A stretch of DNA of 32,463 nucleotides from NCBI RefSeq assembly GCF_003334385.1, contig NZ_QOWN01000051.1; one strand, given 5' to 3'. The stretch is from Escherichia coli (GTDB taxonomy: Bacteria > Pseudomonadota > Gammaproteobacteria > Enterobacterales > Enterobacteriaceae). Position numbers and translations under genes: made by a program. Each line of letters opens with the position of its first letter. Positions within the stretch are counted from its first letter, which is position 1. The notes under the pieces are model-generated. The model had not been told where the DNA came from and searched no databases. It saw nothing but the letters and a program-made list of their open reading frames with translations. This document shows, piece by piece, positions 28,083 through 29,196 of the stretch.

Positions 28083-28952
28083 TGAGATAATTTCCTGATG
28101 AACGAATTAACGAACATAGGCAGACACAAATAATGGCGTCTGCTTGTCAGAAAAACCGGGGATTTCCCGATTTCCTTTTCCGCAGAAAAGGAAATACCTT
28201 TATGTAAGAAAGTGCACCGCCACCTAATATATCCAGTGCCTATAGCCACTCATCAGGTGGTTGGGCGCGGGATTATATTTTTATTTATGGGGGAAAATTT
28301 AGCTTTTTGTGCAAGTCATTAAATAGATACCTAAGTTATATTTCTTACTCTGCGGACAGTGAATAATTCACTATTCAGAGTGAATAACAATGACCTGCCT
28401 TTAATTAAAACTATTGGAAATACGTCGAAATAGGTATATATGCCAGGATAAACCAATATATTTTTTATGGATATTCATTTTCCTTCATCGGACTGTAAAT
28501 TGCGGAGATATCGAACTTGCACTACCCATCGCAACACTCAAACAGATTTATGAATTTCGTTCATAACCCCTGACAAATTCTGCCGTCTAATCGAGCTTTT
28601 CCCTTTACGTTATGCTTCTCATGAACGATAACACAACTTGTTCATGAATTAACCATTCCGGATAAACTATGGGATCAAATTCAGGCATCGAAAGGAACTG
28701 GCTGGTTTCCGTTAATGGATTAAATATCTATTATTCTCCCGAGAGTAAAACTATCAAATCAATGAGTAACCGATACAGCCTCACAAATTCTTTCAGATAA
28801 TTAACCCGTCACTGCGGCACGTTCTCTCATAAGGCGTGCCTGCAGTGTAATCCAGTATGTATCCGGCATAGTTGACGGTTTAATAGAACTCAATTCCTCT
28901 CCCAGGTCACCAACAACGATATCTTGTATAACACCCCAGGAGATACGACATT

Positions 28953-29072
28953 ATGATGAGATGCGATATGCTCCTCAGCACCAATCAACGCCCGGACTGG
29001 GCCAGTCTTGAGATCAGACTCATTCCCGGAACTGACTTCAGGCGACATATATCAATGACGTTGGTGCAATAA
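28953..29072 (+). CDS. Candidate small ORF (39 aa) with Shine-Dalgarno, function unknown
   Basis: AGGAGA 9 nt upstream of ATG at 28953; translation MMRCDMLLSTNQRPDWASLEIRLIPGTDFRRHISMTLVQ*. Too short for the supplied track; no recognisable domain. Confidence 0.25.
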   Translation: MMRCDMLLSTNQRPDWASLEIRLIPGTDFRRHISMTLVQ

Positions 29073-29196
29073 AAGATAGTTGATGTAATACATCTATTCA
29101 AATTTGTGATACATGTCAAAAAATTGGTTGACCAAACTCGTTATTTATATAAGGGCACTTACGAAGTGCACTCTTTTTTAAAGCGAGGAAGTACCA

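Follow-up and report, generated by a model that had tools for sequence, protein, structure and literature searches.

The fdeC-ykgR gap of Escherichia coli as a probable composite left by a single ancient deletion

We found that the 1114-bp gap between the adhesin gene fdeC (eaeH) and ykgR is very likely a composite intergenic region produced by one ancient deletion, rather than a dedicated 1.1-kb leader of the adhesin gene. The gap covers positions 28083-29196 of the window, by which we mean the whole stretch of DNA that was analysed (32,463 nucleotides from E. coli contig NZ_QOWN01000051.1, assembly GCF_003334385.1). A sequence-only reading had previously described it as a single AT-rich leader that would normally be treated as empty, containing a candidate 39-codon gene and a palindrome with a nearby repeat that was taken for regulator-binding architecture. 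The observed features were confirmed with small coordinate corrections, and the interpretation was supported only in its generic and already published part, namely an AT-rich, silenced region upstream of an adhesin gene. The genes and boundaries on which the argument turns are as follows.

fdeC (eaeH): 23826-28082, minus strand; intact, 1418 aa.
Presumed relic promoter/operator of a deleted AKR gene: 28548-28632, plus strand; includes the dyad TTATGAATTTCGTTCATAA at 28548-28566.
Deletion junction: 28632, no strand; about 4.7 kb of O157-type genomes missing, with 1 nt of microhomology.
ykgP pseudogene: 28634-28723, plus strand; last 29 codons and stop of an NADH-dependent flavin oxidoreductase gene.
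ykgR: 29197-29298, followed by ykgM, ykgO, ecpR and ecpA.

The gap is a known and annotated stretch of the K-12 genome, and there is nothing new in that. It is 100% identical to K-12 MG1655 313243-314356 over all 1114 bp, with ykgP at the same place. The pseudogene is annotated in K-12 (b4630) and the same partial CDS is called by RefSeq's PGAP, so the description of the region as normally treated as empty was mistaken. The two loci differ in fdeC itself, which is interrupted by IS3 in K-12 and intact in the window. The G+C content of the gap is 39.1%, compared with 48.6% for the whole window, with minima near 30% and some stretches at 30-35%, bearing out the description of an AT-rich region adjoining the adhesin gene.

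BLAST alignment to an O157-type locus (L002) split the gap into two halves. Window 28083-28632 matched 735-1285, the divergent intergenic region between fdeC and an AKR gene in O157, and window 28632-29196 matched 6001-6565, comprising the last 92 bp of the O157 oxidoreductase gene and its downstream region, with 4715 bp absent at the junction relative to O157. Translation of 28634-28723 gave QLVHELTIPDKLWDQIQASKGTGWFPLMD*, in which 28 of 29 residues were identical to the C-terminus of the O157 oxidoreductase; ykgP has the make-up of a pseudogene remnant, being homologous to the end of an intact gene whose remainder is missing at a defined junction, 28632. The same junction was found in ST2350, O177:H21 and MFDS1022581, and since short-form strains that are 2-6% apart in the ORF region have it in common, the deletion was most probably one event. 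With 4715 bp missing between the aligned halves and the junction shared, the supposed 1.1-kb leader is thus best read as a deletion scar.

We searched 5426 complete E. coli genomes with the gap and obtained a match in 5075. The gap was in one piece (one place covering at least 80% of the query) in 2807 of these, and the other matching genomes had genes between fdeC and ykgR, the long form occurring in O157, B2 and further strains. In its fullest order the island reads AKR, AKR, LysR, LysR, alpha/beta hydrolase and NADH-dependent flavin oxidoreductase; partial forms were present in O157 and other strains. In the ancestral state a 6-7 kb island separated fdeC from ykgR. The K-12-like form arose by a 4.7-kb deletion, which brought the divergent intergenic region of fdeC and AKR up against the final 90 bp of the oxidoreductase gene and the spacer behind it. 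Variation at the level of genes is covered by the Figure 1 legend of Nesta et al. 2012, which describes an ‘fdeC cluster’ of fdeC with putative regulators, reductases and hydrolases, as well as truncated cluster genes in some strains (PMC3324786); the exact junction and the relic promoter were worked out here.

In long-form strains the AKR start codon lies 15 bp past the junction. Since AKR orthologues in Klebsiella, Dickeya, Serratia, Yersinia and an Enterobacter-like contig are preceded by the same conserved block (about 28545-28632), this part of the gap is probably a relic of the AKR promoter/operator.

Conservation was mapped with 12 E. coli of decreasing identity together with Escherichia sp. 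E1V33, E. whittamii and the divergent E. coli E69, the last three picked up by a scan with the FdeC N-terminus. Three constrained blocks emerged in the gap (28083 to about 28316, about 28545-28632 and 29082-29196). The first was nearly invariant and could still be aligned in E69, whose fdeC adjoins gadB/gadC-like genes upstream, unlike the window, and ykgA downstream, like the window. The stretch 28724-29080, which holds the ORF, was about as variable as its non-coding flanks and was not conserved beyond E. coli. A single 1.1-kb leader is at odds with this map: only about 235 bp beside fdeC are conserved together with the gene, and the remainder is made up of the relic AKR promoter, the deletion junction, ykgP, spacer and the ykgR promoter. 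Functional content would then be found at the two ends, in an fdeC module of about 235 bp and a ykgR promoter and leader of about 115 bp, and the middle (28317-29080) may be relic or weakly constrained DNA. Outside the fdeC module, the following elements were conserved.

ykgR promoter and leader: 29082-29196, plus strand; almost invariant out to E. whittamii.
Hairpin GCACTT-ACG-AAGTGC: 29155-29169, plus strand; followed by a T-run and picked up by a terminator scan.
Conserved hairpin: 28810-28847, plus strand; in the former 3' region of the oxidoreductase gene, -21.7 kcal/mol.

The hairpin in the ykgR leader showed one compensatory change in E1V33, and the ykgR promoter contains TGTGATACATGTCAAA at 29105-29120, which we take to be CRP-like. 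The stem at 28810-28847 is maintained in Escherichia sp. E1V33 via changes on both sides. An Rfam scan of 27900-29700 at E <= 1 returned only a meaningless match to an rRNA fragment.

Control of fdeC by H-NS and temperature, with silencing at the locus, is already published and is not new. The title of a paper by Easton et al. 2014 reportedly reads ‘FdeC is regulated by H-NS and temperature in EHEC’. A lac-gfp reporter at K-12 eaeH was silenced by a transcriptionally silent protein-occupancy domain (Bryant et al. 2014, PMC4191405), H-NS is listed at the neighbouring ykgM-ykgR spacer (PMC3946193), FdeC is described as not expressed in vitro (PMC3324786), and fdeC is induced at >=39 °C (PMC11143625). 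The gap resembles H-NS- and temperature-silenced adhesin promoters, as represented by fdeC in EHEC (going by the title of Easton et al. 2014) and by Bryant et al. 2014, in that gene and locus are the same and the DNA is AT-rich relative to the genome, silent in the laboratory and induced at >=39 °C (PMC11143625, PMC4191405). On this literature the whole AT-rich region would be under nucleoid-protein silencing of the H-NS type, and the proposal of such silencing in the adhesin region agrees with it (PMC4191405; title of Easton et al. 2014). The present sequence analysis linked the GTGAATAA motif neither to silencing nor to counter-silencing.

A stronger version of the same idea treats all 1.1 kb as a single long platform for H-NS nucleation and silencing, whose length and AT content would have been selected. 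Its G+C content of 39%, with stretches at 30-35%, would suit such a platform, as would the silencing domain at this locus in K-12 (PMC4191405) and the naming of H-NS and temperature as regulators in the title of the 2014 fdeC paper. However, about 45% of the matching genomes carry ordinary genes, 5-7 kb of them, where the right half would be, with fdeC intact in the examples examined, and the upstream neighbour in E69 is altogether different. As the long-form strains and E69 differ upstream, the 1.1-kb arrangement is not required; AT-rich DNA is all that silencing calls for, and the proximal module has it already. We therefore consider a selected platform quite unlikely.

Its variation pattern suggests that the 39-codon ORF is very probably not a gene.

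AGGAG and 39-codon ORF MMRCDMLLSTNQRPDWASLEIRLIPGTDFRRHISMTLVQ: 28938-29072, plus strand; judged non-coding.

The Shine-Dalgarno sequence, start codon and frame were present as described, the ORF (28953-29072) opening with ATG ATG and AGGAG lying 10 nt upstream at 28938-28942. Such a start, with its spacing and double ATG, could belong to a real, young and lineage-restricted small protein that is dispensable and hence often lost; most E. coli and Shigella genomes keep the frame open, and transcripts could come from the relic AKR promoter, which points at the ORF from upstream. The substitutions argue otherwise. Among 12 diverse E. coli, the ORF showed 10 nonsynonymous, 2 nonsense and 1 synonymous change together with one 1-nt deletion that shifts the frame, and 9 of the 13 substitutions were at codon position 2. 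This is neutral or non-coding variation (1 synonymous change against 12 that alter an amino acid or create a stop) and not the synonymous excess of purifying selection. The frame was disrupted in six of the 12 by independent lesions (a TGA stop at codon 4, a TAG stop at codon 16 or the frameshift), and three B2-type strains were without the first ATG. Allele-specific searches, built so that only allele carriers could seed a match, gave lower bounds, among the 5426 complete genomes, of 611 for the TGA-at-codon-4 allele and 403 for the frameshift allele. The ORF was intact in most genomes, roughly at least 80%, and with its good Shine-Dalgarno sequence it may be translated in some strains. Escherichia sp. 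E1V33 has no start codon for the ORF and carries an indel, E. whittamii has unrelated sequence at the position, and the frame is thus not kept open across strains and related species.

The annotation databases gave a similar picture. PGAP annotated nothing under the ORF in 60 sampled genomes, and the entries in other databases were all ‘hypothetical protein’ calls made automatically in E. coli and Shigella, a point in favour of a small protein; no counterpart was found outside these two. The peptide had no match among NCBIfam models. It was not found among the listed rows of the retapamulin start-site table of Stringer et al. 2021, and the ORF is unmentioned in Weaver et al. 2019, but such absence says little, the locus being silenced in laboratory culture. 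Because of the stops, the frameshifts, the mostly nonsynonymous changes and the loss in sister species, the ORF behaves like non-coding DNA. The proposal that it is a candidate gene thus did not survive a conservation check across strains, and a young small protein is very improbable; the ORF would be a chance one in a fast-evolving spacer. The E. coli small proteins known from ribosome profiling, such as YkgR, are likewise short intergenic ORFs with a Shine-Dalgarno sequence, but YkgR with its promoter has hardly changed as far as E. whittamii, whereas the 39-codon ORF is unconserved and often disrupted. An antisense 52-codon ORF has the same variable sites and fared no better. We also considered the spacer holding the ORF as a remnant of the YhcN-family gene that lies upstream of ykgR in E. 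whittamii and dropped the idea, tblastn having found nothing.

Judged by its alleles, the small palindrome is a form that a short repeat takes in one strain lineage, and no role for it emerged.

Palindrome and repeats: 28358-28388, no strand; 7-1-7 palindrome AGTGAATAATTCACT at 28358-28372, AGTGAATAAT at 28358-28367 and AGTGAATAAC at 28379-28388.

Both the palindrome (AGTGAAT-A-ATTCACT) and a second copy of GTGAATAA (28380-28387) are present as had been described, except that the copy begins 7 nt past the palindrome instead of 8 and that the underlying repeat is AGTGAATAA(T/C), at 28358 and 28379 with a 21-bp period. The ancestral allele, AGTGAATAAT-TCATTATTCAG-AGTGAATAAT, was carried by all genomes outside the K-12-like lineage and by both outgroups. 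It is a perfect 10-nt direct repeat with a 21-bp period and also an 8-2-8 palindrome, TGAATAAT-TC-ATTATTCA, at 28360-28377. The window allele has two derived T-to-C changes belonging to the K-12-like lineage, the first of which makes the 7-1-7 palindrome and breaks the 8-2-8 palindrome, and the second of which damages the second repeat copy. We found the window allele in 1866 genomes and the ancestral allele in at least 2079; exactly one 21-bp unit was lost in 89 genomes, with fdeC annotated intact in the one examined. Exact copies of AGTGAATAAT also occur in the fdeC terminator stem (23756) and within fdeC (24846), and these extra copies were dropped as a signal, triple 11-mers being ordinary in the window.

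The motif sits in the most variable 200 bp of the gap, between the fdeC block and the AKR-promoter block, and by eye its 31 nt have fewer variable columns than the flanks; weak constraint on it is possible. A repeat-finding program reported nothing relevant here, the arms falling below its length threshold. First-order Markov simulation of the region (1000 runs) gave a 7+7 palindrome in 27% of runs and the observed number of 8-mer direct repeats within 40 nt in 24%, neither being unusual by itself; palindrome and repeat fell together at one spot in 0.4%, a test chosen after seeing the data. This coincidence (P about 0.004, with the same proviso) is one reason to ask if the AGTGAATAAT repeats, phased at 21 bp or two helical turns, form an operator array that modulates fdeC or the divergent AKR operon, for example as an anti-silencer countering H-NS, with the K-12 allele as a variant operator. 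The repeat is also retained with 0-2 changes in all sampled E. coli phylogroups, E1V33 and E. whittamii despite its variable surroundings, and its distance from the inferred fdeC start site, about 93-123 bp upstream, would suit an upstream activator. To our knowledge, none of the ArgR, CRP, Fur, RcsAB, Lrp, Fis and LysR-type consensus sequences fits the motif with the right spacing, which speaks against an array.

Conservation with a regulated gene, as expected of an operator, was not seen. The fdeC upstream module of E69, where homology ends at about 28316, lacks the motif, as do the AKR upstream regions of five other genera; the two lineage-specific substitutions in 1866 genomes and the copy lost in 89 fall inside the motif itself, fdeC being annotated intact in the examined example of such a loss. 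In addition, a plasmid fragment described as ‘fdeC with promoter sequence’ gives temperature-dependent FdeC expression (PMC11143625) and begins at about window 28332, which leaves the motif outside it. We therefore regard an operator array as unlikely. The reading of the motif as regulator-binding architecture was not borne out by the conservation check, the perfect palindrome being the derived allele of one lineage and the motif being missing from the E69 fdeC module, the AKR regions of other genera and the temperature-responsive fragment. Within the composite gap, the AGTGAATAA repeat lies in filler DNA that separates the fdeC module from the relic AKR promoter; it may have arisen by chance or be a minor protein site peculiar to the lineage. 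The idea that the motif travels with the AKR gene was also rejected, as the five other genera share only the proximal 100 bp or so upstream; matches to TGAATAAT in their AKR loci fell in the coding end of the upstream gene and are unrelated.

The 235 bp conserved together with fdeC contain three elements.

Marbox-like site CTTGCACAAAAAGCTAAAT(T): 28297-28316, minus strand; 18 nt upstream of TATAAT, the last element conserved with fdeC.
TATAAT, candidate fdeC -10: 28272-28277, minus strand; perfect, without a recognisable -35, invariant in five aligned lineages.
Putative fdeC 5' leader: 28083-28265, minus strand; about 183 nt, assuming a transcription start some 7 nt past TATAAT.

CTTGCACAAAAAGCTAAAT(T) has one mismatch to AYNGCACNNWNNRYYAAAY, which we take to be the MarA/SoxS/Rob marbox consensus, and matches it at 19 of 20 positions. 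The consensus and its spacing and orientation rules reportedly go back to Martin et al. 1999. Measured against that consensus and spacing rule, the site lies where a marbox at the -35 is expected, about 18-19 bp from the -10; a two-hexamer promoter scan misses TATAAT, the -35 being missing. An identical site is present at -232 to -234 in three loci (L004, L005 and L006). E69 keeps the marbox-like site, TATAAT and the 18-nt spacing between them, with the spacer sequence diverged, and its homology ends just past the site. Because a one-mismatch marbox is expected by chance 0.76 times per 32 kb, the marbox remains a lead. The arrangement is like that of class II MarA/SoxS/Rob promoters, in which the marbox overlaps the -35, in having a marbox-like site 18 bp before a perfect -10, and would make fdeC a candidate for this class.

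The leader was nearly invariant in 10 Escherichia sequences, including E69. Its predicted fold is strongly structured, with a minimum free energy of -68.6 kcal/mol (z = -5.4 relative to shuffled sequences); in it, UUUUUCUGA pairs with the Shine-Dalgarno sequence UCAGGAAA and the AUG is also paired. Since the leader is almost invariant, only one compensatory pair was available. An RNA thermometer was considered and set aside, the predicted Shine-Dalgarno pairing barely changing from 25 to 45 °C in silico.

A candidate regulator is encoded next to the adhesin gene. Its convergent neighbour ykgA encodes a full-length Rob paralogue with HTH_18 and GyrI-like domains (194 bits against the RobA model, below the 380-bit cut-off), and ykgA accompanies fdeC in all four Escherichia lineages. 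On this basis, we tentatively suggest, as a reading that is possible rather than probable, that the regulatory content of the gap is the conserved 235-bp fdeC block, with a marbox-dependent promoter lacking a -35, YkgA as its activator and translation gated by the leader. In this scheme fdeC and ykgA, which are adjacent and are transferred together, form a two-gene module, and predicted pairing of the leader U-run with the Shine-Dalgarno sequence might underlie the reported switch at >=39 °C. In a weaker variant, the 21-bp-phased AGTGAATAAT repeats would serve that regulator, or a different one, as an auxiliary site farther upstream.

The original finding as written matters little, given that the gap is annotated, the ORF is most likely spurious and the control of fdeC is published. 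Its practical value is negative; the 39-aa ORF should stay off small-protein lists, and in strains where other genes left half of the 1.1-kb gap as a relic, the gap should not be taken for ‘the fdeC promoter’. What induces FdeC, which is both an adhesin and a vaccine candidate, is poorly understood. A concrete and testable hypothesis for how fdeC may be switched on comes from the conserved marbox-like site together with the Rob paralogue inherited alongside the gene and the structured leader.

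The candidate fdeC promoter region carries a marbox-like site, and a possible regulator for it, the Rob paralogue ykgA, is encoded beside fdeC. 

None of the papers searched connects ykgA with fdeC. The site has one mismatch to the marbox consensus, and a perfect TATAAT lies 18 bp downstream on the same strand, with the -35 element absent. E. coli E69, although divergent, keeps both sequence and spacing, and ykgA accompanies fdeC where the pair occupies a different genomic context.

Features in and around the fdeC-ykgR gap (window coordinates unless an accession is given)
28272-28316, minus strand: marbox-like site and TATAAT, from sequence match and conservation
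22802-23686: ykgA, full-length Rob paralogue, neighbour of fdeC
28083-28265, minus strand: putative fdeC leader, from near-invariance and predicted fold
23756-23765, plus strand: extra exact AGTGAATAAT, in the fdeC/ykgA terminator, within the hairpin stem
24846-24855, minus strand: extra exact AGTGAATAAT, inside the fdeC coding sequence
28548-28632, plus strand: promoter/operator left over from the deleted aldo/keto reductase (AKR) gene, conserved upstream of AKR orthologues
28810-28847, plus strand: strong hairpin, -21.7 kcal/mol
29082-29196, plus strand: ykgR upstream region, almost invariant out to E. whittamii
29105-29120, plus strand: CRP-like TGTGATACATGTCAAA in the ykgR upstream region
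CP089930.1 (L006), 7730-15903: fdeC locus of E. coli E69

The putative fdeC leader is near-invariant in sequence and has a strong predicted fold (-68.6 kcal/mol, z = -5.4), in which the AUG is paired and a U-run base-pairs with the Shine-Dalgarno sequence. In silico, the Shine-Dalgarno pairing did not melt anywhere in the 25-45 C range. The leader of most other strains contains a CCGGG...CCCGG hairpin followed by TTTTTCT, an arrangement resembling an attenuator; the hairpin of the window allele is weaker by one base.

Upstream of this promoter, the 10-nt direct repeat AGTGAATAAT, of 21-bp period, varies in copy number. E. coli O177:H21 lacks exactly one 21-bp unit, the equivalent of 28358-28378, and has fdeC annotated as intact; the same one-unit deletion was found in 89 genomes in all. 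Slippage between the paired AGTGAATAAT copies would be expected to give just such a loss. The two extra copies, at 23756 and 24846, are probably due to chance because triple 11-mers are not unusual in the window.

The relic AKR promoter/operator is a block conserved 5' of AKR orthologues in several genera, and contains a dyad, TTATGAATTTCGTTCATAA, that looks LysR-type in its T-N11-A sequence. In short-form genomes, which carry the 4.7-kb deletion, this promoter is now directed at ykgP, the 39-codon ORF and ykgR. The strong hairpin at 28810-28847 begins 87 nt past the ykgP stop codon, lacks a T-run and has its stem maintained by two-sided changes in Escherichia sp. E1V33; most likely it served the former oxidoreductase operon as a 3' end or stability element. 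Just 18 nt upstream of the ykgR start lies a 6-bp hairpin with a T-run (29155-29179), in which a single A:T pair has become G:C in E1V33, a compensatory change. About 200 bp upstream of its ykgR promoter, E. whittamii has a gene for a YhcN/BhsA-like secreted protein of 83 aa in place of the E. coli spacer bearing the 39-codon ORF; a tblastn search for a remnant of this gene in the window found nothing.

The fdeC-ykgR neighbourhood has been struck repeatedly by insertion sequences (complete-genome matches H1 and H30; O157-type locus L002, 6904-9216): some strains have IS1 inside the gap, O157 has ISEc8 between ykgR and ykgM, and K-12-like strains have IS3 in fdeC. The O157 example also has a frameshifted ykgR. 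In E69, fdeC is longer (1627 aa) and adjoins gadB/gadC-like genes, and the reductase island is not there. Given these changed surroundings in E69, fdeC and ykgA behave together as a two-gene module that is mobile.
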